DNA of 64,000 nt. Source: an uncultured virus (IMG/VR IMGVR_UViG_2061766007_001347) (taxonomy: Duplodnaviria; Heunggongvirae; Uroviricota; Caudoviricetes). The position numbers and the translations under genes are program-made. Shown here piece by piece: positions 207 to 60,836 of this stretch. Positions within the stretch are counted from its first letter, which is position 1. Every line of letters begins with the position of its first letter. Location: the IMG/VR virus record IMGVR_UViG_2061766007_001347. One strand, given 5' to 3'. The notes under the pieces are model-generated. The model was not told the origin of the DNA. It saw only the letters and a list, made by a program, of their open reading frames with translations, and made no database searches.

Positions 207-589
207 AGAAAGTTCAGATACTTTTGAATGCTGTCATTGATTGATTGATCAGGCTCACTCTTTCGAATTTCCTTCTCAGCTTGTGAGCACTCTTTTGGTT
301 TACGTGAACCTGAGCATTTGACGTCTTCTATGAATTCTTGACACCAATCATCTGCAGTCGGTCTTTCGAAATAGTAAATCTTAACATTGGTCTGATATCG
401 TCTAACAAACTGCTCAGCTTTCATTTTACACTTTTCTAGTGTGTCAAAACCAGCGTGCACAAATAGTTTTCCTGCGTAATCAATGCAGATCGAGTACTCA
501 CTATGAGATAGACCAAACCTTAATTTTAGATGTTCTAAATTTATGCTGTTGAAGCATTTACCGTTACATGTTTCAAATATCATTGTCAT
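191..589 (-). CDS. Hypothetical phage protein
   Basis: 132-aa ORF, no recognised motif. Confidence 0.55.
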   Translation of the reverse strand: MTMIFETCNGKCFNSINLEHLKLRFGLSHSEYSICIDYAGKLFVHAGFDTLEKCKMKAEQFVRRYQTNVKIYYFERPTADDWCQEFIEDVKCSGSRKPKECSQAEKEIRKSEPDQSINDSIQKYLNFLKNSY

Positions 590-4054: not shown

Positions 4055-4405
4055 TTAACCCCAAATCCATTCGCCACGTTTGATCTGCTTGATTTCGCCA
4101 TCGCTGATCTTCAGTTCAACGATCTGGCCAGCGTATTTGGCAACCATCTTTTTAACGCGGGCGATTTGTTTCACCGTCAGGAATCCTTTTTCGAGATACC
4201 ATTTGGCGAGTCCTGACCCCTTCTTTGCGTCCTGCGGTTTAAATCCGACGCCATTGCGATATTTGACGTCTTCATGGAGTTTCTCATCTTCAACTTGCTT
4301 GCCATATATAAAGGTTAAAGCGTGGATCGCGGTGGAGTCCTTGACCTCGATCTGGTTGCGAAGCTTGCTGATGATTTCCTGTTTGCTGCTGAATTTGACT
4401 GCCAT
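4055..4405 (-). CDS. Conserved phage protein; paralogue of 54258-54608 and 28647-29012
   Basis: Shared Q..DE...NGVGF...DA...KYAGQ motif. Confidence 0.85.
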   Translation of the reverse strand: MAVKFSSKQEIISKLRNQIEVKDSTAIHALTFIYGKQVEDEKLHEDVKYRNGVGFKPQDAKKGSGLAKWYLEKGFLTVKQIARVKKMVAKYAGQIVELKISDGEIKQIKRGEWIWG

Positions 4406-10615: not shown

Positions 10616-11836
10616 TTATTGAGCGTCAGAAGCCTTGAAGTTGTAGATCGGTTTAATTACTGTAACAATCTCGACGGTGTCTTTAACTGCTTCAATGATT
10701 TCCTGCGCATTTTTGTATGCCATCGGCGACTCATCCAATGTTCCCTCATCAACTGATGTTGTGTAAATACCAGCCATCGAATTTTTGAAGTCTTCCATTG
10801 AAATTGCCTGTTTGGCTTCTTTACGCGACATCAATCGACCAGCACCATGCGGACCAGAACAGTTCCAGTCTTCATTGCCTTTTCCGATTGCTAAGATTGA
10901 ACCATCACGCATGTTTAACGGAATTATTACTTCTTCACCTTTATTGCAACGGATTGAACCTTTGCGAATAATGTTATCGTCAAAGTCAATGTAGTTATGA
11001 ACAGTATGGAAAGATCGTTTTGCAACTAATCCAAATCGCTCATACATGAAGTCACAGATACGGCAAGCAATCTCTTCACGATTTTTTACTGCATATTCTT
11101 GACAAATTTTCATATCGTATAAATAAGCATCTCGTGATTCACCAGTTAAATAGCATAAATCTGTCGGTACTTTGTCTACGCATTTATATTCTTCACGCAA
11201 TTTTTCTATTGCAGACTGAATTTCTTTCTGCTGACCGTTTAATCGCATACGAGTAACTAATCCAGCAACTTTTGCTTTCAATTCAATAGAATTGTTATTG
11301 CATTCATCAATAGCAAGATTCTGATAGAATTTACAGACCTGCTGACCTAAGTTACGCGATCCAGTATGAATTACTAAATATAGTCCACTGTTTTCATCAT
11401 GATCTAATTCAATGAAATGGTTACCGCCACCCAATGAACCGACTGAGTGATGTAAGTGCTCAACATTTCGTAACTCACGTCGCATACGCAACTTGTCTAA
11501 ATCTTCAAAGCCCACTGAGTGATCAGCATCATTAGCATTCATACCAGACGGAATGTTTTCGTGAATAAAGCCATCTATTGCTGCCAATTGCAAATCAGAC
11601 AATGTGCACTGACCGAAGTACACTACATACATCCCGCAACCGATGTCTACGCCGACTAAGTTCGGCACAACTTTATCACCGAGGTTTGCAGTGAAGCCAA
11701 TCGTACATCCTTTTCCTGCGTGACAATCCGGCATAATGCGAATCTTTGCATCTTTGAACGCTTCCTGATGAGCAAGATTCATAACCTGTTCACGACAAGC
11801 ATCTTCTACAGTTTTTGCAAATATCTTCAGATCCAT
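10616..11836 (-). CDS. rtcB: RNA-splicing/repair ligase RtcB
   Basis: MPDCHAG, VGVDIGCG, LGGGNHF, HTGSR, HNY, HGAGR and DESPMAYK motifs. Confidence 0.97.
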   Translation of the reverse strand: MDLKIFAKTVEDACREQVMNLAHQEAFKDAKIRIMPDCHAGKGCTIGFTANLGDKVVPNLVGVDIGCGMYVVYFGQCTLSDLQLAAIDGFIHENIPSGMNANDADHSVGFEDLDKLRMRRELRNVEHLHHSVGSLGGGNHFIELDHDENSGLYLVIHTGSRNLGQQVCKFYQNLAIDECNNNSIELKAKVAGLVTRMRLNGQQKEIQSAIEKLREEYKCVDKVPTDLCYLTGESRDAYLYDMKICQEYAVKNREEIACRICDFMYERFGLVAKRSFHTVHNYIDFDDNIIRKGSIRCNKGEEVIIPLNMRDGSILAIGKGNEDWNCSGPHGAGRLMSRKEAKQAISMEDFKNSMAGIYTTSVDEGTLDESPMAYKNAQEIIEAVKDTVEIVTVIKPIYNFKASDAQ

Positions 11837-17578: not shown

Positions 17579-18760
17579 TCAGTGATATTTGAGAAGGAAG
17601 TTCGGAGATACACATTTGTAGTTTAGCTGACCATCTTGTGAGTACATAACAAATCCCTCAATCATTTCACCATCAATATCTGATTTGCAAGAATCGACAG
17701 TTTTAATGAGATCTTCAACCGTATCTGGAATAGTTAACATCCAATCAAATACATGAACTGCTGGGAGCTCAAGATCTTTACAGATTTCAAGCATACGCTT
17801 AATTTCTAGTCGTTTTCCATCCATCCAAATATGAAATACAGCCAAACGATGTTCTCCATTCTTTAAGCCATACTCTCGCTTCTGAATCCTGCTGCCATAA
17901 GTCTCTCCCTGGATCGCAACTGATTTAAGATTGTACTTCTTCTTTAGTTCTACAAGCTTTGTTCTGACGTCATATTTATCAGACATCTCAACCCAGACAT
18001 TCTTATCGACGTACTTGCTACCGTCAGCAATTTTTTCAGAATTCTTTACTTTATCAGAAAAGACGATCACATTATGTGAAGCTACCATATAGTTATTCTT
18101 TTCATCAAGAATAAAAGATGTGCTCATACCATCTACTTTTTCAGTAGCAATCCACTTAGTGTCATGATCTTTGAATAACACAGGGACATTCTGAACTCTT
18201 TCACTGTTAGTCTTTGGTAACCATACAGGCCAAGAAATCTTGTCTTTCTTGTGAACAAAGATTTTAGCAAACAACCACCTTGCAGCACTAAATCTCATTA
18301 AGAATTTCACTACAGGGTTGCCGAAGAATTTCTTATGACGATCCATTGCTTTCTGGAAAGCGCTTACTTTAGGCTTAGATTGATCTTGTTTATCGCATTG
18401 CTCTTCATATAAAGTGACACCTAATTTCTCAGTAACGAAGTCACCTTCTTTACAATTTTTTAATTCTGGGAAGTCAGACAAAGAAAGCACTAACCCCTGT
18501 GAAACTACTTTGCACATTTTCTGAGTCTTTACTCTGTAGTTTCGTTTTGCCATAAAAGAAAAGCGCTCGTCACTCTCTGGTAACACAGAGTCGATTTCGA
18601 AATAAATACCAAGGCTGTCTTTTTCAATGTCTTTAGAGGCAACGCACCACCATCCATTCACATGTACGTAATGTACACGATCATAGCCCTCAAGATCTTT
18701 AGTGTCTGAAATTCTAACAACATACGCCAATTCACGCTGATTGGTTTTTGGATTCAACAT
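17579..18760 (-). CDS. ATP-dependent RNA ligase, Rnl2/DRB0094-type with N-terminal OB-like domain
   Basis: Motif I TEKVDG, IQGETYG, EGFV, K..S..FLLK C-terminus. Confidence 0.88.
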   Translation of the reverse strand: MLNPKTNQRELAYVVRISDTKDLEGYDRVHYVHVNGWWCVASKDIEKDSLGIYFEIDSVLPESDERFSFMAKRNYRVKTQKMCKVVSQGLVLSLSDFPELKNCKEGDFVTEKLGVTLYEEQCDKQDQSKPKVSAFQKAMDRHKKFFGNPVVKFLMRFSAARWLFAKIFVHKKDKISWPVWLPKTNSERVQNVPVLFKDHDTKWIATEKVDGMSTSFILDEKNNYMVASHNVIVFSDKVKNSEKIADGSKYVDKNVWVEMSDKYDVRTKLVELKKKYNLKSVAIQGETYGSRIQKREYGLKNGEHRLAVFHIWMDGKRLEIKRMLEICKDLELPAVHVFDWMLTIPDTVEDLIKTVDSCKSDIDGEMIEGFVMYSQDGQLNYKCVSPNFLLKYH

Positions 18761-28646: not shown

Positions 28647-29012
28647 TTAGTTCCAGGTGTAGAATCCATTCTGTTTCGAAATGGCACCATTACGAATCTT
28701 GGTGTTCATAATCTGCCAGGCGTATTTTGTCATTCTGCGCTGAACTTCAACAGCCTGTTCGTCATTAAGATCTTTACCCTCAGATTTGTCCTTCGCGATC
28801 TGAGTAAGAACTTTAGCATCAGATTTGTTAAACCCTTTACGGTTCTTATAATAGGTAGAATTGGTGGCAACTTCATTCTCGAGCTGGTTGCCGAAAACAG
28901 TCATAAGACCATCGATCGCGTCATTGATATTGTGGGTGATTCCAGCTCTAATGTTATTGGCGAGATCGGTTTTGTTGCGAAGGGTGATGTTGCTGTTGAT
29001 TGTGATTGTCAT
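28647..29012 (-). CDS. Distant paralogue of 4055-4405
   Basis: NQL.NE...N.KGF...DA...KYAWQI. Confidence 0.75.
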   Translation of the reverse strand: MTITINSNITLRNKTDLANNIRAGITHNINDAIDGLMTVFGNQLENEVATNSTYYKNRKGFNKSDAKVLTQIAKDKSEGKDLNDEQAVEVQRRMTKYAWQIMNTKIRNGAISKQNGFYTWN

Positions 29013-40748: not shown

Positions 40749-41610
40749 CGCTCTAGTCCTTATGAATGTTATACTCTATATTGCATAGAGTGATTTGCAA
40801 CTCATTTGCCAAATCTTCTACGACTTCTTTAGCAGCTGTTGATTTATCATAAAGATCTTTCCCTATGAAATTCTGACTGCTTGTTGTACGGAATCTTAAA
40901 AGTGCAGATAATAGATCATTGCACAATCTTCTTGATTCCATTAAACAAGCAATCTCATAAGCGTCATGCATAAGATTCTTATCCATTGCTGTACTCCACA
41001 TCAGTCAATTAGTGTTACTTTGACTCGTTTAACTGTACATTCCTGACCGTCACTACCATAACCAATTCTTGACTTTGCACCTTTTTCAGTAGAGAATAAA
41101 TGTGCTTTGTCGAAACTGTCATATCCGTAACATGAAGAGATACNNNNNNNNNNAATAAAAATCATTCATTTCATTTCCGCTAATAATATGAAACACTGCA
41201 CCATCTTTCAAACCACAAATGCCATCAAGGTACTTTGCATAATCATCGAGACTATCAAGATCTAGTCCTTCAAGTGTCAATGCTGAATTATTATAAAGTT
41301 CATCAAAAATGGACTCATTGACATTATCGTTAACAGTGTAATTCATACTATCTCCTATGTGTTTAATGGAGGAACCATTTCCATCCATCATGTGATTTAT
41401 ATTATAATCATTTTCTTTTGAAAGTCAATGGATTATTTTGATTTATTTTCTTTTTCTTTCATTTCAATAATATCGCGTGCCGTAATAACTCTTGGAGATT
41501 TGCTTGAACGCTTTCGCGATATGTATGCACCAAGCTCATAAGCGACAACGATAAGTATTGCTATCATGGATGCTACAAACAAAATGTCTATCATTTGTGA
41601 ACCTCCTGTT

Positions 41611-41675
41611 ATGAATGGATCCATTTCCATTCATTTTATGAGACTATAATAACATAGTTCAGAATGAATGTCAAT
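41611..41675 (-). promoter_or_regulatory. Type-B promoter (TTGACA) + leader hairpin
   Basis: TTGACA-N17-TATTAT then ATGAATGGA..TCCATTCAT. Confidence 0.75.
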
Positions 41676-43112
41676 GGTTATTTTAGATAGTCAGCATATT
41701 TTTCTCTAAATGCTTTTTCGTCTTTTGAATTATATGCTTCACACTCAAGCACATGCTCAATGCTAGGGAATCTCAACGTTATGTACTCATCGCATTGTAC
41801 CGTCTTTTCTTCAAAACAATGCAATTCGATGGCTACACATTCACGGTTAAATTTACAGTCAACTTCAATCTTTTCTAACGCTCTATACAAATATAGAATT
41901 TTTGCTTTCTCATAATGAACTTTGTGAACTACTGTTTTCAGTGCATCACGGATTTGCATTTCATCAGAATTGAACAGAGAATAAATCCATCCAATCAAAG
42001 GAAGTGTGCGTTTCGCGTATGTACCTGCAACAGTGTTCAACTTAATGCTCATTGCTAGAATCCTGCACGTTCGAGAACATCGTTCAAATCGGCCCACATG
42101 TCAATGTCTTCAACATCAATGAGATCGCCAGATTCAATGCCGTAATACTTTCCATTCGCACAATAATGCACTGTTATGTATCCTTTATAATCTACGTAGC
42201 ACAGCATATTGCAATCTGATGTAGGAAACTCTTTGTCTTTTGTATAATGCCAAATACGATTCATACTATCACCAATTGTTAATGACGTCAGTTAGTTCAT
42301 CAACGGTCTCTTGTGTTATACGATACTCAATACATGGCAAATATTTGAAGTTCTCATCAAAGCCGTCATGCAAATCACCCTGAACTTCATTAAAGAATTT
42401 AAGATTAAACAGTTTCTTAAATAGAGCATCTTTGTACAATGTCGGGCATCTCAATAGCCACTCCCAATCTATTCCTTGACTAGAATTTTCATGTGGCTTT
42501 CCATGAGGACCTAATATATCACCGTTGCGGTCCCAGGCATTAACACAAATGCTACCATAATAAGTGCCGTTATTTTTACGTTTACATAACGTCACAATGA
42601 AAGTAACTTTATCTTTTGGTCTGCAACTAATTAGTGGAATATTTTCGTAAGTGAATAAAGCCTGACAGATAGTATCATTCCAATGAGGAAGTTTAGTTTC
42701 AGAGTTAACAGTAATTTCCTTTGTGTAAGCTGACATATTCGTATCTCCTTTTTACAAAGAAAGTGTACCACTTAACAGTAACTTATTGTTTGTTACAGAG
42801 TTCTAATTTCAACATCCCCACAATCAGAATCAAAAATTACAGCATGATCATCTTTAAGACGTTTAATAGCTTTCGCTAATTCAAAGATATCCCATACATC
42901 ACCGAACGCGTCATCTACAAAGTCAAGAATGTGATTAATTGTAGATGGTGCTGAAGTCTCCCATGAAATAATCATTCTGTCATAAACTGCCTGAATGTAA
43001 ATCTCACATCCCACACTAGTAAGATACGAATCCCAGTCATCAGCGAGTGATCTTGCATCAGCAGAATTTATATTTGAGATCCAAAGTTCACTCATAGTGA
43101 CCTCCTATATGT

Positions 43113-43176
43113 AATGAATGGATCCGTTCCATTCATTTTATGGTTATGTTATATCACAGATTTAATCTGTTGTCAA
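43113..43176 (-). promoter_or_regulatory. Type-B promoter + leader hairpin
   Basis: TTGACA-N17-TATAAC. Confidence 0.8.
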
Positions 43177-43221
43177 TAAGAATTTTATTATTTTAATGGA
43201 GTTCTTTTTGACGAACTGTAA

Positions 43222-54257: not shown

Positions 54258-54608
54258 CTATCCCCAAATCCATGAACCACGTTCAAGTTGACGAATCTCA
54301 CCTTCACAGATTTTCGCTTCGACAACCTGTCCTGCATATTTAGCAACCATCCGTTTCACAGCAGTTAACTGTTTTGTAGTGAAGAATCCTTTGTCCTGGT
54401 ACCATTTTGCAAAGGATGAACCTAATTTTGCATCCTGCGGTTTAAACCCTACACCGTTGTGATACTTAACAGTTTCCTGACGTTGCTCATCGGCAACCTG
54501 ACGATCGTACACAAACATAAGGGTATGAATTGCAGTGGAGTCTTTGTCAGCAATCTGTTTACGAAGTTTTTCGACGATTTCTTTTTTGCTTGTGAACTGA
54601 ATTGCCAT
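54258..54608 (-). CDS. Close homologue of 4055-4405
   Basis: Both 116 aa; NGVGFKPQDAK identical. Confidence 0.85.
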   Translation of the reverse strand: MAIQFTSKKEIVEKLRKQIADKDSTAIHTLMFVYDRQVADEQRQETVKYHNGVGFKPQDAKLGSSFAKWYQDKGFFTTKQLTAVKRMVAKYAGQVVEAKICEGEIRQLERGSWIWG

Positions 54609-54627
54609 GTCAAATCTCCTTATCCTT

Positions 54628-54945
54628 AATGAAGGGATCTATTCCATTCATTTTATGAGTTATTTATATCACAGATTAAATCTGTTGTCAATAAGAATTT
54701 TCTTATTTTTGACAGATTTTTCAAAGAGGATTGAATGGATCCATTGTTTCCATTCAATTTATGAGTATATTGTAACACAGTTTTTGGCTGCTGTAAATAG
54801 AAAAATGCTGAATTTTTGACGAAAATTGTATCAGATTGTATCAGAAATTTATCAGATTTCTGATACAATTTTCTGAAATTTTTCTATTGACAGATGGTTA
54901 AAAATGAGTTATAATTATAACAGGTGGACTGTGCAATCTTTTGAG
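54628..54945 (-). promoter_or_regulatory. Composite block: tandem hairpin promoters, TGTATCAGA motifs, divergent promoter
   Basis: Hairpins at ~54628 and ~54730; TTGACA..TATAAT on + at ~54887-54915. Confidence 0.7.
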
Positions 54946-55002: not shown

Positions 55003-55076
55003 TTCCACCTGCACGATTTGAACGTACATTGTAGGAGTCAGAATCCTATGTCCTAACCAATTGAACGAAGACGGAT
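55003..55076 (-). tRNA. tRNA-Gln(CUG)
   Basis: Cloverleaf; TAGGA-TT-CTG-AC-TCCTA. Confidence 0.85.
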
Positions 55077-55094
55077 TAAATACAATCGTATAAA

Positions 55095-55186
55095 TGGACG
55101 CGGCAGGACTCGAACCTGCTATTCCGAATTCAAATGTGATTTGCATTCCTCGCGAGAGGTGTTTTACCTCGATAAACTACACGCCC
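55095..55186 (-). ncRNA. Atypical tRNA-like RNA with Ala-type G3.U70 acceptor and non-canonical anticodon region
   Basis: GGGCGTG/CGCGTCC-A, D and T arms; two short hairpins replace the anticodon/variable arms. Confidence 0.7.
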
Positions 55187-55192
55187 ATAAGA

Positions 55193-55263
55193 TGTGCCCA
55201 CAAGGACTTGAACCTTGATAGACGGATTAAAAGTCCGCTATTCTACCTTTGAATTATAGGCAC
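55193..55263 (-). tRNA. tRNA-Lys(UUU)
   Basis: GCGGA-CT-TTT-AA-TCCGT. Confidence 0.9.
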
Positions 55264-55282
55264 ACAAAATGCTCCAAGAAAA

Positions 55283-55356
55283 TAGATGTAGGAGGACTTG
55301 AACCTTCAACCTACGGCTTCGTAGGCCGTTGCTCTATCCAGTTGAGCTATACATCC
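55283..55356 (-). tRNA. tRNA-Arg(ACG)
   Basis: ACGGC-CT-ACG-AA-GCCGT. Confidence 0.92.
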
Positions 55357-55361
55357 ATAAA

Positions 55362-55433
55362 TAGGGAATAACAGATTTGAACTGTTCTTACCACATTATC
55401 AGTGTGGCGTCCTCACCTCTAGACGAATTCCCT
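55362..55433 (-). tRNA. tRNA-Ile(GAU)
   Basis: CCACA-CT-GAT-AA-TGTGG. Confidence 0.85.
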
Positions 55434-55443
55434 ATAATAAATA

Positions 55444-55540
55444 TTTGGCTGCTGGGATTCGAACCCATAACCTCTGATCCCTTAAATTTAAGGTGACTAT
55501 CTCATCAGTGTTCTGTTACCATGTTTTAAACTACAGCCCA
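55444..55540 (-). ncRNA. tRNA-like RNA with a 25-nt expanded anticodon loop
   Basis: CTGAT/ATCAG stem encloses GAGATAGTCACCTTAAATTTAAGGG; T arm TGGG-TTCGAAT-CCCA. Confidence 0.7.
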
Positions 55541-55545
55541 TAAGA

Positions 55546-55619
55546 TGGTAGCGGGTCCGGGAATTGAACCCGGTCTATAAGGTTATGAGCCTTATGTGCT
55601 TCCGTTACACTCACCCGCA
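55546..55619 (-). tRNA. tRNA-Met(CAU) (Met or Ile2 class), CCA encoded
   Basis: TAAGG-CT-CAT-AA-CCTTA; 1:72 mismatch. Confidence 0.85.
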
Positions 55620-55623
55620 ATAA

Positions 55624-55796
55624 AACCATGTGTAGGAATTGAACCTACTCCTTTCATGGCATCTAATATGATTCCTATAATTGTGTTGATCCTGAACTTA
55701 TAGAGAAATGATTCTCTACTCGGGAATTGAACCCGACCAATTATAGGTATTAGTTTATAGCTACATGAATGTTCATTCCAATTGAACTTACATGGT
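55624..55796 (-). ncRNA. Double-headed tRNA-like RNA (outer tRNA + nested circularly permuted tRNA elbow)
   Basis: Two T arms, two D-like arms and two 7-bp acceptor-like stems joined by a long helix. Confidence 0.8.
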
Positions 55797-55799
55797 AAA

Positions 55800-55875
55800 T
55801 AGCAGTGGAGGGATTTGAACCCCCGACCAAGAGTTTATAAGACTCCTGCTCATAACCAGACTGAGCTACACTGCT
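55800..55875 (-). tRNA. tRNA-Ile(UAU)
   Basis: GGAGT-CT-TAT-AA-ACTCT. Confidence 0.88.
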
Positions 55876-55880
55876 ACAAA

Positions 55881-55954
55881 TCTAGGTGGCAAGATTCGAA
55901 CTTGCGACATCCTGGATCCTAACCAGGAACTCTACCAGACTGAGCTACACCTAG
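55881..55954 (-). tRNA. tRNA-Pro(AGG)
   Basis: CCTGG-TT-AGG-AT-CCAGG. Confidence 0.88.
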
Positions 55955-55958
55955 AAAA

Positions 55959-56032
55959 TCTAGACGGGTGGATTTGGACCACCGACCTCCTGAATCCAAA
56001 TCAGGCGCGCTACCAGACTGCGCTACGCCTAG
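55959..56032 (-). tRNA. tRNA-Pro(UGG)
   Basis: CCTGA-TT-TGG-AT-TCAGG. Confidence 0.88.
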
Positions 56033-56037
56033 AAAAT

Positions 56038-56130
56038 AACATAATTCAATTGGCACGGCTCTCACGTACTGCCAAGCTCCTCCATAATTAATACAAATTA
56101 TGTGGTTCCGCCAAGCAATTGAATTATGTT
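56038..56130 (-). ncRNA. Candidate structured RNA between tRNAs
   Basis: Perfect 15-bp closing stem AACATAATTCAATTG/CAATTGAATTATGTT. Confidence 0.55.
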
Positions 56131-56133
56131 AAA

Positions 56134-56205
56134 TACTCCCAGTTGGAATCGAACCAACATCTAGGGTTTAGAAGACCCTTGTTCTATCCTTTGAACTATG
56201 GGAGC
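56134..56205 (-). tRNA. tRNA-Arg(UCU)
   Basis: AGGGT-CT-TCT-AA-ACCCT. Confidence 0.92.
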
Positions 56206-56317
56206 AAAAGACGCAGGTGTTATTTAGATAGCAGTTCTATTTCAACTACAGGGCACACACCTCAAACCTCTTTGTTGGTTAGCCTCGCCAGCATTGCCCG
56301 ATTTGAACGGGACTTAA

Positions 56318-56388
56318 CGGGAAATGAAAGAATCGAACTTTCATACATCGGTTAACAGCCGATTGCTTTACCTTTAAGCTAATTTCCC
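56318..56388 (-). tRNA. tRNA-Asn(GUU)
   Basis: ATCGG-CT-GTT-AA-CCGAT; G discriminator. Confidence 0.9.
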
Positions 56389-56394
56389 AAAAAG

Positions 56395-56573
56395 TGCTCC
56401 AAGAAGGAATCGAACCTCCAACTTCCTGATTACAAATCAGGCGTNNNNNNNNNNTATGAAGAGATGCTTTGATGTTTCCAGTAAAATTTACTGTCAGCTC
56501 TCTGAATGACGTACATTATTCTTTCTTCCATGACAGATGCTCCNNNNNNNNNNACCAATTGAACTATTAGAGC
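56395..56573 (-). tRNA. tRNA-Thr(UGU), split by assembly gaps (halves 56395-56444 and 56554-56573)
   Basis: CCTGA-TT-TGT-AA-TCAGG; acceptor halves on either side of an N-flanked insert. Confidence 0.75.
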
Positions 56574-56577
56574 ATAG

Positions 56578-56650
56578 CATCCTCAACAGGAATTGAACCT
56601 GTGTTGTTTATACCATAGTATAACCGTCCTAACCACTAGACGATAAGGAT
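56578..56650 (-). ncRNA. Glu/Asp-like tRNA body with non-canonical anticodon loop
   Basis: TCGTCTAGTGGTTAGGAC D arm; TTATAC-TATG-GTATAA instead of a 5-bp stem with 7-nt loop. Confidence 0.65.
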
Positions 56651-56661
56651 ATAAAGATAAA

Positions 56662-56733
56662 CGTCCTCGACGAGATTCGAACTCATATTATGTGCGTGAA
56701 AGGCACATGACCTAACCCTTAGTCGACAAGGAC
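56662..56733 (-). tRNA. tRNA-Glu(UUC)
   Basis: TGTGC-CT-TTC-AC-GCACA. Confidence 0.9.
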
Positions 56734-56736
56734 AAA

Positions 56737-56879
56737 ACAAATCATTTCCATTACCATACGCTAGGACTTTTTCAGGCTCTACGTTTGTTACCCTAATCCC
56801 TCCACTCTCTAGCTATGTACACTTGTTAGATCGTTTCAGTCTTTACTCTCACAACTCGCTCTTCGTAGCAATGATTTGT
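56737..56879 (-). ncRNA. Candidate ~143-nt structured RNA between tRNAs
   Basis: 10-bp closing stem ACAAATCATT/AATGATTTGT. Confidence 0.45.
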
Positions 56880-56881
56880 AA

Positions 56882-56958
56882 TGGAAAATGAAAGATTCAA
56901 ACTTTCATCTAACGACCCCAACAAAGGCCGGTTGTTTTATCAGTTAAACTAATTTCCC
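56882..56958 (-). ncRNA. Atypical or pseudo tRNA resembling the tRNA-Asn body, with G3.U70
   Basis: GGGAAAT/ATTTTCC-A; irregular anticodon arm; T loop TTTGAAT. Confidence 0.6.
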
Positions 56959-56962
56959 ATAA

Positions 56963-57046
56963 TGGGCAGGGATGGACTCGAACCACCAATAGCTTTCGCC
57001 GCCTGATTTACAGTCAGGTGTCTTAACCAATTCGACGCACCTGCCC
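56963..57046 (-). tRNA. tRNA-Tyr(GUA)
   Basis: CCTGA-CT-GTA-AA-TCAGG; long variable arm. Confidence 0.92.
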
Positions 57047-57060
57047 AAATCTTTTGGATA

Positions 57061-57133
57061 TGATGAGGAGTGGAGTTGAACCACTGACGCAGAGATTTTC
57101 AGTCTCTCGCTCTACCGACTGAGCTACCCCACC
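57061..57133 (-). tRNA. tRNA-Phe(GAA)
   Basis: AGAGA-CT-GAA-AA-TCTCT. Confidence 0.92.
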
Positions 57134-57150
57134 AAATTGATACTTTCTTT

Positions 57151-57188: not shown

Positions 57189-57217
57189 ATTATACATTGG
57201 AATGTTTTGAATGTCAA
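57189..57217 (-). promoter_or_regulatory. Consensus sigma70 promoter of the tRNA operon
   Basis: TTGACA-N17-TATAAT exact. Confidence 0.9.
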
Positions 57218-57690: not shown

Positions 57691-57858
57691 TTATCCTACA
57701 CTGATGTAAAACTTACCATGTTCTTCACCGACATCTTTCTTATCAACGTCATACTCAATAAACTCATCAGTATAATACCCAGAGTCAGGAGCGCAAACAG
57801 TAACTTCCATATCAGGGTCTGCTTCCTTAAGAATTTCAATCAATTCTTTTACTGTCAT
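57691..57858 (-). CDS. MTVxELIExL family member (not in ORF track)
   Basis: Hand translation MTVKELIEILKEADPDMEV. Confidence 0.8.
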   Translation of the reverse strand: MTVKELIEILKEADPDMEVTVCAPDSGYYTDEFIEYDVDKKDVGEEHGKFYISVG

Positions 57859-57877
57859 GTCATTTTCTCCCTATGTT

Positions 57878-57942
57878 TAATGAAAGGATCCATTCCATTC
57901 ATTTTATGAGTTATTTATAACACAGATTCAAATGAATGTCAA
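57878..57942 (-). promoter_or_regulatory. Type-B promoter + leader hairpin
   Basis: TTGACA-N17-TATAAA. Confidence 0.75.
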
Positions 57943-58156: not shown

Positions 58157-58321
58157 TTACCGATTACCTTTGGAATCCCATTGGGAAATAAGAACATCAC
58201 CATCTTCATCTGTACGAATATATTCTTTCTGTATTCCATTTGGTCCCTCACAATCTTCTGTGTAAACTGTCAGATTCTGATCAAATGTTTTCAAGATTTC
58301 AATCAATTCTTTTACTGTCAT
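58157..58321 (-). CDS. MTVxELIExL family member (not in ORF track)
   Basis: Hand translation MTVKELIEILKTFDQN. Confidence 0.75.
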   Translation of the reverse strand: MTVKELIEILKTFDQNLTVYTEDCEGPNGIQKEYIRTDEDGDVLISQWDSKGNR

Positions 58322-58341
58322 GGTGTATTCTCCATTGATTC

Positions 58342-58890
58342 ATTGAAACGGTCCATCCGTTTCAATTTATGAGTTATTTATAACATAGTTTGTGGAACAT
58401 GTCAACAAGAATTTTCTTATTTTTGACATTTTCCATCAAATTTTCAAAGATTCAATGAATGGATTATCTGTTTCCATTCATTTTATGAGCATATAATAAC
58501 CAATTTTCTATGGTTTGTCAACCAAATTTTTAAGGAATTTTCTGAAATTTCAAAGAATTTCAATGAATGGATCCAGTGTTCCATTCATTATGGCACTATA
58601 ATAACATAGAAAATGGTGGCTGTCAAATAAATTTTTAAGAAAATTAGTGTCAAAATGTATCAGATTTTGACGAAAGTGTGTCTTGGATTGCACAGATTCT
58701 GCCTCCCCAGCATAATTTTATCACAGATTTTAGTCTTTGTCAACGGAAAAATTCAAGAAAATTAGCTTATTTTTACCAAAAATTTAGGTGAAATTTTACT
58801 AAATTTTCTATTGACAGACTGAATTTTCTGTGATATAATACACATTTTCAGCAGAAAAAGTCCTAGATTGCACAGCTTCTGATACATTTT
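58342..58890 (-). promoter_or_regulatory. Composite block: three tandem hairpin promoters + divergent promoter
   Basis: Hairpins at ~58342, 58454 and 58562; TTGACA..TATAAT on + at ~58811-58839. Confidence 0.7.
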
Positions 58891-60583: not shown

Positions 60584-60742
60584 CTAACCAACGTAAAGCG
60601 TAAAACTCTTTGAGTCTATCTCAACATCATCTTTAGAAATTTCATCATATGTTGAATCGAATCCACCGTCCGGTGCTTTAACAACAAACGTCAAGTCAGA
60701 ATCAACGTTCTTCAAAATTTCAATCAATTCTTTCACTGTCAT
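60584..60742 (-). CDS. MTVxELIExL family member
   Basis: MTVKELIEILKNVDS; start revised. Confidence 0.8.
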   Translation of the reverse strand: MTVKELIEILKNVDSDLTFVVKAPDGGFDSTYDEISKDDVEIDSKSFTLYVG

Positions 60743-60763
60743 GATATTTTCTCCTTTTGGTTT

Positions 60764-60836
60764 ATTGAATGGATCCATTCCATCCAATCTAGAGTCCTTA
60801 TAAGCTAAACTGAGAAATATGTAAACAAAAATCACC
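60764..60836 (-). promoter_or_regulatory. Type-A promoter + leader hairpin
   Basis: Consensus layout. Confidence 0.8.

Follow-up and report, generated by a model that had tools for sequence, protein, structure and literature searches.

The locus and its tRNA array

The window, meaning the whole stretch of 64,000 nucleotides that was analysed, carries on its minus strand a tRNA array (55003-57134) with 15 tRNA calls by ARAGORN and 16 tRNA matches by Rfam. Within this array the gap between tRNA-Ile(tat) at 55799-55876 and tRNA-Met at 55546-55619 is filled by an RNA gene of 173 nt, here called the element, which occupies exactly 55624-55796 on the minus strand (element position p being 55797 minus the window coordinate) and is set apart from tRNA-Ile by 2 nt and from tRNA-Met by 4 nt. 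No ORF of at least 50 aa overlaps the element in the window. A sigma-70-type promoter sequence upstream of the first tRNA of the array (Table 1), a call that consists in the consensus match only, as the total count of such sites does not rise above that in shuffled sequences, likely drives the array as one polycistronic precursor.

The surrounding DNA has a GC content of 0.35-0.38 (36% for the window), with almost every ORF on the minus strand and open under genetic code 11. Most of the ORFs could be assigned to no family when all 113 of them were scanned for domains; the named ones include an RtcB and an RNA ligase, which lie 37-45 kb from the element, and furthermore phosphoesterases, an HD hydrolase, a dCMP deaminase and two amidoligases. 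The window appears to be a section of a large, uncultured rumen phage genome. The labels of the sequencing runs in which this sequence occurs read bovine gut, bovine or gut metagenome, and half or more of its words are found in eight runs, two of which may be its source. Searches of the GenBank phages by blastn, megablast and tblastn gave no match to the element, to a 5-kb stretch or to two proteins, and blastn of the element against 50,697 phage records was equally without a match; the phage group is uncharacterised. A related phage is represented by a contig of 35.5 kb that is rated 17% complete, from which a genome size near 200 kb follows; neither RtcB nor RNA ligase was found on this fragment, which is uninformative at such a degree of completeness.

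Table 1. Features of the window and of the element, given in window coordinates, with the basis of each assignment
Feature	Coordinates	Strand	Remarks
RtcB	10616-11836		Window ORF
RNA ligase	17579-18760		Window ORF
Sigma-70-type promoter, TTGACA-17-TATAAT	57189..57217	minus	12/12 consensus; precedes the first tRNA of the array
Outer acceptor stem, 5' strand ACCATGT	55790..55796	minus	Pairs with 55625-55631
Outer D arm GTTC-AATTGGAAT-GAAC	55771..55787	minus	Pair probabilities 0.97; relatives show G-U changes only
Stalk, 5' strand: helix a (6), 10-nt internal loop TAGCTATAAA, helix b (6), helix c (10)	55738..55769	minus	Fold
Inner T arm TCGGG-TTCAATT-CCCGA	55720..55736	minus	Pair probabilities 0.74-0.94; invariant; T-loop motif 55723-55733
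Closed acceptor-like hairpin GTAGAGA/TCTCTAT	55700..55719	minus	Stem invariant; pair probabilities 0.94-1.0
Cap loop of the closed hairpin, 6 nt	55707-55712	minus	5 of 6 columns variable
AA linker before the inner D-like arm	55698-55699	minus	
Inner D-like arm GTT-CAGGATC-AAC	55685..55697	minus	Read from the sequence; pair probability about 0.2; in L004 one G-C pair is G-U
Stalk, 3' strand: helix c (10), 5-nt bulge AATCA, helix b (6), ATGC, helix a (6)	55653..55683	minus	Fold
Variable region AGGA, 4 nt, 5' of the outer T arm	55649-55652	minus	
Outer T arm GTAGG-TTCAATT-CCTAC	55632..55648	minus	Pair probabilities 0.83; T-loop motif 55635-55645
Outer acceptor stem, 3' strand ACATGGT, and discriminator T	55624..55631	minus	CCA not encoded
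RNA-library contig X15 record 1	55615-55882		Spans the inner module unspliced
RNA-library contig X16 record 5	55624-55774		151 nt; spans the inner module unspliced

Fold of the element

The element is a tRNA-shaped RNA in which the anticodon end has been replaced by a long stalk and a second, back-to-front tRNA-like head, and it does not read codons. Its minimum free energy fold reaches -49.3 kcal/mol (z -4.73), with none of 200 shuffled sequences folding equally well, and comprises the outer acceptor stem of 7 bp with the outer D and T arms, the stalk as three helices (a, b and c; 6, 6 and 10 bp) and, in the inner head, T arm and closed hairpin; an identical structure is returned by RNAalifold for five sequences. 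The parse of the minus strand from which the analysis set out, the preliminary description, reads exactly as given with respect to boundaries and order of parts, and its outer acceptor, D and T arms of normal shape, its stalk of 6+6+10 bp and its inner T arm and 7-bp closed stem were all recovered by folding of the single sequence and of the alignment. Its inner module of T arm, closed stem and D arm stands in part: the T arm and the hairpin are recovered, while the D arm (GTT/AAC with the loop CAGGATC) can be read in the sequence in the order described and is missing from the minimum free energy and the RNAalifold folds, with pair probabilities of 0.19-0.22 for its stem as compared to 0.55-1.0 in every other helix.

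The tRNA character of the outer head is evident from its dimensions, with stems of 7, 4 and 5 bp for acceptor, D and T arm and linkers of 2, 1, 4 and 0 nt as in a canonical tRNA. In the window the T-loop motif GGTTCRANYCC has 14 occurrences, compared to 0.18 expected by chance; 13 of the 14 lie on the minus strand of the tRNA array and two of those within the element, one in each head (Table 1). As had been proposed, there is no anticodon: an anticodon loop with a 5-bp stem, a 7-nt loop and U33 was not found in the sequence of the element, and ARAGORN at default settings makes no call. The Rfam scan at gathering threshold calls no family at the element; the tRNA model RF00005 gives a partial alignment of 16.3 bits where the threshold is 29. 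Each half of the element follows the linear order of a tRNA, namely acceptor 5' strand, D arm, middle, T arm and acceptor 3' strand. A canonical inner elbow is, however, not assured, since the inner module departs from positions conserved in tRNA and in the bacterial Y RNA YrlA: the linker is AA and not UA, and the 'variable region' consists of a single G.

Copies in other contigs and allele comparison

The element is real DNA and a conserved gene, and not a misassembly. The concern about a misassembly that accompanied the preliminary description is answered by an independent DNA contig (run X3, record 11; one DNA run was compared), which is colinear over 55400-55953 with a single difference, and by four other colinear contigs. 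These four public contigs, retrieved by scans with exact and R/Y-degenerate patterns, are the IMG/VR contig L001 and the metagenome contigs L003, L004 and L005; all of them show the same architecture. At all five loci the element resides inside a tRNA array on the strand of the tRNAs; the spacers measure 2-4 nt. With model R1 the five copies reach 203-212 bits (212 for the window), and the next-best matches are ordinary tRNAs of at most 41 bits. Further pattern scans of viral contigs recovered only the same IMG/VR contig and those of genome contigs gave no match; a search for related loci via a neighbouring protein of 109 aa found none, and via a protein of 88 aa three, with the element present only in the already known contig. 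A relative with a small tRNA array (L006) is without the element. The family is tiny and encompasses five genomic copies and the variants in two RNA-library contigs.

These two RNA-library contigs, which stem from different studies and from libraries that may contain DNA, span the whole inner module without a joint (Table 1). Contig X16 record 5 begins exactly at the predicted 3' end of the element, an observation to which no weight was given as it concerns a contig of read length from a single study.

Comparison of the five copies reveals two alleles of the outer body, one with the acceptor strands ACCATGT/ACATGGT (window, L003 and L004) and the other with GGGAAAT/ATTTCTC (L001; GTGAAAT in L005). 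Between the alleles five of the seven acceptor pairs differ on both sides with pairing kept, apart from one U.U mismatch in L005, so that the outer helix is under selection to pair; with two alleles, the swap counts as effectively one event. Over the whole alignment standard pairs fill 98.9% of 265 pair cells, compared to 38-51.5% when the partners are slid by one to three columns. The inner helices are invariant across the five sequences and the comparison therefore offers no covariation for or against the inner fold. The 5' strand of the stalk is invariant except at columns 34 and 57, and the changes observed in the inner D stem (L004) and in helix c (L003) convert G-C or A-U to G-U; one further change in L004 creates a G.A mismatch in helix c. 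The most variable spot of the molecule is the cap loop of the closed hairpin.

The two parts of the molecule evolve in a very different manner. Identity between the alleles amounts to 63-65% in the outer 51 nt and to 93-98% in the stalk and inner module (122 nt), or 95.7-99.1% if the cap loop is left out (116 nt). In comparison, tRNAs with the same anticodon are 63-80% identical between the window and L008, the wider locus of the contig of L001 (8 pairs), and 59-85% identical between the window and L003 (9 pairs), with orthology not assured in either set, and the shared neighbouring proteins of the loci have 30-80% identity. The contrast between an outer body at 63% and a stalk and inner module at 96-99% suggests that the working part under constraint is the latter, and that the tRNA body serves as a handle for processing. 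Alternatively, phages may have exchanged the element recently, and the core would then be nearly identical for this reason and not through selection.

Relatives in design

A two-headed tRNA-like design has precedents, namely RNA2 of phage T5 and the tRNA introns of the Lak megaphages, so that the statement of the preliminary description that no such module had been reported is wrong in part: the idea is not new, while the exact full design was not found in print. In open-access papers and preprints no description of the full four-way inner module on a stalk of 22 bp was encountered.

T5 RNA2 (misc_RNA rna2, AY543070 32959-33083) is annotated as 'tRNA-like stable RNA with unknown functions' and has 125 nt compared to the 173 nt of the element. 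Like the element, it is located in a phage tRNA cluster on the strand of the tRNAs and folds into a tRNA body with acceptor, D and T arms that harbours a second T-arm-like hairpin inside the anticodon arm. The inner part consists of the hairpin CUCG-UUCGAUU-CGAG and a G-rich single strand that replace the anticodon loop; in contrast to the element, the stalk is short and the inner part lacks a closed acceptor-like hairpin as well as a D stem. The likeness does not extend to the sequence. Model R1 scores T5 RNA2 at 15.5 bits. Of the eight T5 tRNAs annotated within the same 3 kb, seven score higher (24.4-33.4 bits) and tRNA-Leu lower (10.9 bits), and neither R1 nor blastn against the phage records detected any sequence or profile kinship. 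The T5 record likewise annotates RNA2H, RNAIV and RNA3, in the tRNA cluster beside RNA2, as stable RNAs with unknown functions; open-access papers and preprints on the stable RNAs of T4 and T5 yielded nothing on RNA2.

The parallel to YrlA drawn in the preliminary description is well founded with respect to the order of parts, as the Rfam consensus of YrlA (RF02553) displays the same permuted domain of T arm, closed acceptor-like stem-loop, 2-nt linker and D arm on a stalk with internal loops. Of the conserved nucleotides of tertiary contacts, TTCAATT in the T loop and GG in the D-like loop are retained. The 7-bp length of the closed stem is shared with the YrlA of Mycobacterium smegmatis, the sole YrlA with such a stem, which is cut by RNase P and receives CCA (Chen et al. 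2014, PMC4201824). The differences concern the linker (AA versus UA), the 'variable region' of one nucleotide (G) where YrlA has about 4 nt ending in a pyrimidine (10.1101/312249), and the D arm, which has 3 bp and a 7-nt loop compared to 4 bp and 9 nt. The terminal stem that binds Ro60 in YrlA is replaced by a complete tRNA body. An origin of YrlA from dimeric tRNA transcripts has been proposed (Sim and Wolin 2018, as conveyed by preprint 10.1101/312249), and the layout envisaged there is nearly exactly that of the element, which in addition keeps the outer tRNA body.

Some tRNAs of Lak megaphages are reported to carry 'enigmatic', highly conserved introns, and it is said of one intron that it 'itself may encode a tRNA' (Devoto et al. 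2019, PMC6784885). By this published description, the Lak case and the element have in common that gut phages with large tRNA sets carry a tRNA-shaped gene with a tRNA-like insert, the Lak insert being nearly identical across cohorts. The two differ in that Lak phages have about 26% GC and an alternative genetic code, as opposed to 36% GC and code 11 in the window; furthermore the authors read their case as an intron in a decoding tRNA-Thr(TGT), whereas the element is without a usable anticodon loop. Equally related in layout is the engineered 'tRNA scaffold' of Ponchon and Dardel, in which, as outlined in PMC3753655, acceptor, T and D arms are kept and a hairpin-shaped insert replaces the anticodon stem-loop, giving chimeras that are recognised by cellular factors, precisely processed and stable in Escherichia coli. 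The scaffold is man-made; the element is natural and its insert is itself tRNA-like.

Interpretation and alternative readings

The probable reading is that a large uncultured rumen phage carries here a real RNA gene of tRNA descent, which does not decode and acts as a tRNA mimic; the structural core of this reading can be held with high confidence. The tRNA 'handle' consists of the outer acceptor, D and T arms, and in place of its anticodon arm stands the 22-bp stalk with its two conserved asymmetric loops. The array would be transcribed as a single precursor from the consensus promoter, from which RNase P and a 3' nuclease would free the element RNA as they do the neighbouring tRNAs, a release that is proposed because the outer acceptor/T stack of 7+5 bp and the spacers of 2-4 nt are ordinary. 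By analogy with the engineered scaffold the tRNA body may confer stability, and the sequence-constrained stalk together with the second head may bind a partner that reads sequence. As to the role, the mimic might compete with tRNA for an enzyme that binds tRNA, divert it as a decoy or tether it, in a conflict between tRNA cleavage and repair; this functional guess is tentative and, on balance, doubtful. The decoy or scaffold proposed in the preliminary description likewise has the standing of an inference. A partner from tRNA cleavage or repair was chosen because the phage encodes RtcB, RNA ligase, phosphoesterases and more than 16 tRNAs, which is genomic context only.

Compatible with the tRNA mimic, though unlikely, is a two-piece 'Siamese' tRNA, in which RNase P and a 3' nuclease would process the inner closed hairpin like a junction between two tRNAs. 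The hairpin, with its 7 bp on the 5-bp T stem and its variable, spacer-like cap, might be opened by RNase P as well, and the product would be a heterodimer of 84 nt and 83 nt joined by 36 base pairs, without an anticodon and with CCA on both of its free acceptor ends. The 7 bp of the hairpin and the 5 bp of the inner T stem add up to a stack of 12 bp, and a 12-bp acceptor/T stack is what RNase P measures. Both halves of the element follow the linear tRNA order, which is consistent with such a product, and the processing of the 7-bp M. smegmatis YrlA, as reported in PMC4201824, points in the same direction. The variability of the cap loop, which is as long as a discriminator and one of the spacers between the tRNAs of this array together, might be read likewise, but a variable loop is equally expected of a passive cap. 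Against cleavage speaks that the two RNA-library contigs continue through the cap loop, which indicates that uncut molecules (or DNA) exist, and that T5 RNA2 has its second T arm without an acceptor-like hairpin.

An extension of this idea, speculative and quite unlikely to be correct as a whole, views the element as a natural domain-swapped tRNA dimer. One tRNA would have contributed its 5' part and another its 3' part to the outer head; the inner head would consist of what remained of both and of the spacer, and the stalk of two anticodon arms merged into one. Such a molecule would be a living intermediate on the proposed route from dimeric tRNAs to Y RNAs, and would be matured at both acceptor ends to a two-piece, double-CCA, anticodon-less bivalent tRNA mimic directed against host defences that target tRNA.

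Improbable is that the element is an intron-containing or split tRNA precursor, from which stalk and inner module would be excised by an endonuclease and the exons joined by the RtcB or RNA ligase of the phage into a decoding tRNA, possibly with circularisation of the excised piece into a permuted second tRNA. Both joining enzymes are encoded in the window, and conserved tRNA introns, of which one may contain a tRNA of its own, are reported from the Lak megaphages (PMC6784885). If introns are allowed and the threshold is lowered (-i0,200 -ps90), ARAGORN reports a 'tRNA-His(atg)' with a 100-nt intron; its splice point is, however, non-canonical and leaves the loop GUAUGCC with a C at position 37, and the base that would be position 33 (column 34) is T in three and A in two of the five sequences. 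Two unpaired stretches on opposite strands flank helix b in a loose bulge-helix-bulge topology, but with a helix of 6 bp and unpaired stretches of 10/4 and 5 nt the dimensions deviate from the 3-4-3 arrangement, and a search by eye for cut sites yielding two anticodon loops of 7 nt with U33 was without success. Equally, no group I intron or other Rfam match was found and no tRNA-intron endonuclease domain among the 113 ORFs of the window. The supposed intron is 96-99% conserved as compared to 63% for the supposed exons, the reverse of the usual pattern. No joint across the insert appears in contigs from three RNA-library runs, contigs that drop rare forms and may derive from DNA. The suggestion in the preliminary description that a precursor is cut and religated into two RNAs is not borne out by these results, which include the failure to find a bulge-helix-bulge motif, the lack of conservation at U33, the missing endonuclease domain and the colinear RNA-library contigs.

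Very improbable is, furthermore, a true Ro60-binding Y RNA, i.e. a YrlA orthologue with the Ro60 gene located outside the window. The order of T arm, closed hairpin and D arm on an internal-loop stalk equals the YrlA consensus, some phages have Y RNAs and Ro60, and RtcB, which is often linked to rsr, is present in the window. However, membership in the YrlA family is not supported by the covariance model, as RF02553, which has a gathering threshold of 69 bits, gives no match on the element at E<=10 in searches of 2.6 kb and of 191 nt, while the model is functional in this region with 30.6 bits on a nearby tRNA-Pro/tRNA-Pro junction. The Ro60-binding motif GNCGAAN0-1G, expected near the 5' end according to PMC4201824, is absent and CGAA is found nowhere in the 173 nt. 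The same source places published YrlA genes within 4 kb of rsr. A look for Ro60/Rsr, as suggested at the outset, detected no TROVE domain (PF05731) among the 113 window ORFs or on the 35.5-kb contig of the relative, and a full tRNA body stands where YrlA has its Ro60-binding terminal stem.

A functionless by-product of recombination among the tRNA genes of the array, i.e. a decaying chimera, is hardly credible: tRNA arrays do recombine and the relative with the small array is without the element, but the element is kept in five arrays whose proteins share 30-80% identity, the changes in the acceptor stem are compensated, the core is 96-99% identical, and the 65 ARAGORN tRNAs of the window, L008 and L003-L006 include no convincing donor for either head.

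Implications

For decades phage tRNA clusters have been recognised as sites of stable RNAs without an assigned function. Among these the element is the most complete two-headed form documented here, a full tRNA that passes through its anticodon arm into a complete permuted tRNA-like module. The contrast between the alleles sets a tRNA handle that drifts freely apart from a stalk and second head that are almost frozen, and delivers a concrete target for a partner search. If the partner turned out to be a host tRNA nuclease, repair or processing enzyme, an RNA-based player would be added to the tRNA conflict between phage and host. The match of its layout to the dimeric-tRNA origin proposed for bacterial Y RNAs could furthermore make the element suitable to test that origin. 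In annotation, tRNA finders skip genes of this kind or, with introns allowed, mislabel them as intron-bearing tRNAs.

A second tRNA look-alike within the array

The array that harbours the 173-nt element, the two-headed tRNA mimic without an anticodon, contains a second anticodon-less tRNA look-alike, here termed element B. With 28.6 bits element B remains narrowly under the threshold of 29 of the Rfam tRNA model, and ARAGORN makes no call at default settings. Where an anticodon loop would be expected, the anticodon stem (CTGAT/ATCAG) instead bounds a hairpin and an asymmetric loop of 10 nt, GAGATAGTCA. Mean column identity amounts to 91% in an alignment of four rows from three contigs, whereby the hairpin shows one compensatory change, A-T to G-C, in the metagenome contig L003 and is shorter by 4 nt in the window copy.

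Coordinates of features in and around the tRNA array, with the phage T5 RNA used for comparison
Feature	Position	Strand	Remark
Element B, tRNA-shaped gene	55444-55540	-	97 nt; same array as the 173-nt element
Structured RNA	56034-56132	-	99 nt; between tRNA-Pro and tRNA-Arg
Non-tRNA gaps kept in relatives	56735-56881; 56207-56316	-	identity to L001/L005
tRNA-Thr(TGT)-like gene	56390-56576	-	tRNA arms read in the sequence; partial Rfam tRNA match
Three odd tRNAs	56882-56958; 55094-55187; 56577-56650	-	Rfam and/or ARAGORN
TTGACA-17-TATAAT	54887-54915	+	perfect consensus; second such match in the window
Intergenic repeat family	~41607-41659; 43093-43186; 54627-54777; 57839-57928; 58302-58608; 60723-60795; others		
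phrog_21015 paralogues (three; function unknown)	4055-4405; 28647-29012; 54258-54608	-	E 2e-15; 3e-11; 1e-15
T5 RNA2H, annotated stable RNA of unknown function	L011 (AY543070) 309-480	-	172 nt

Comparison with phage T5 RNA2H

RNA2H, encoded in the tRNA-bearing stretch of phage T5, is almost equal in length to the 173-nt element, but its fold has three hairpin arms on a closing stem of 10 bp and is devoid of tRNA-like arms (z -3.02). Model R1, which scores the five copies of the element at 203-212 bits, gives only 5.3 bits (E 1.2) at L011:476-543, touching just the 5' end of RNA2H.

Other unusual components of the array

The 99-nt RNA possesses a 15-bp closing stem and a fold of -30.6 kcal/mol equalled by none of 200 shuffles (z -4.23); it is 95% identical to L003:1854-1956, and a search of Rfam was without match. 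Among the other gaps, 56736-56962 shares 77-78% identity with the IMG/VR contig L001 and the metagenome contig L005, with a closing stem in the fold of 56735-56881 (z -2.48). The stretch 56206-56338 is 94.7% identical to L001:278-410, with a fold no better than shuffles (z -0.06).

In the tRNA-Thr(TGT)-like gene the acceptor reads GCTCTAA/TTGGAGC and the anticodon arm CCTGA-TTTGTAA-TCAGG, and the T arm is normal. Once the D loop has begun, an insert of approximately 110 nt follows, in which two stretches of 10 bases are N in the window sequence; the partial Rfam match (56402-56457) reaches 25.2 bits. A tRNA-Thr(TGT) with an insert has been reported from Lak megaphages (Devoto et al., 2019; PMC6784885). 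Three further genes are good tRNAs apart from their odd anticodon loops: one, missed by ARAGORN, is recognized by Rfam only (45.5 bits), while the other two are ARAGORN tRNA-??? calls with the two-base 'anticodons' gc and at, one of them 94 nt long.

Surroundings of the array

The plus-strand promoter match is located immediately past the array end and directed antisense into the tRNA array. Dispersed among small minus-strand open reading frames of the window are members of an intergenic repeat family, 50-250 nt long and 70-90% identical to L003:470-670 and L003:5802-6054, which may represent repeats of a promoter or leader region. The phrog_21015 paralogue at 54258-54608 adjoins the array on its downstream side.
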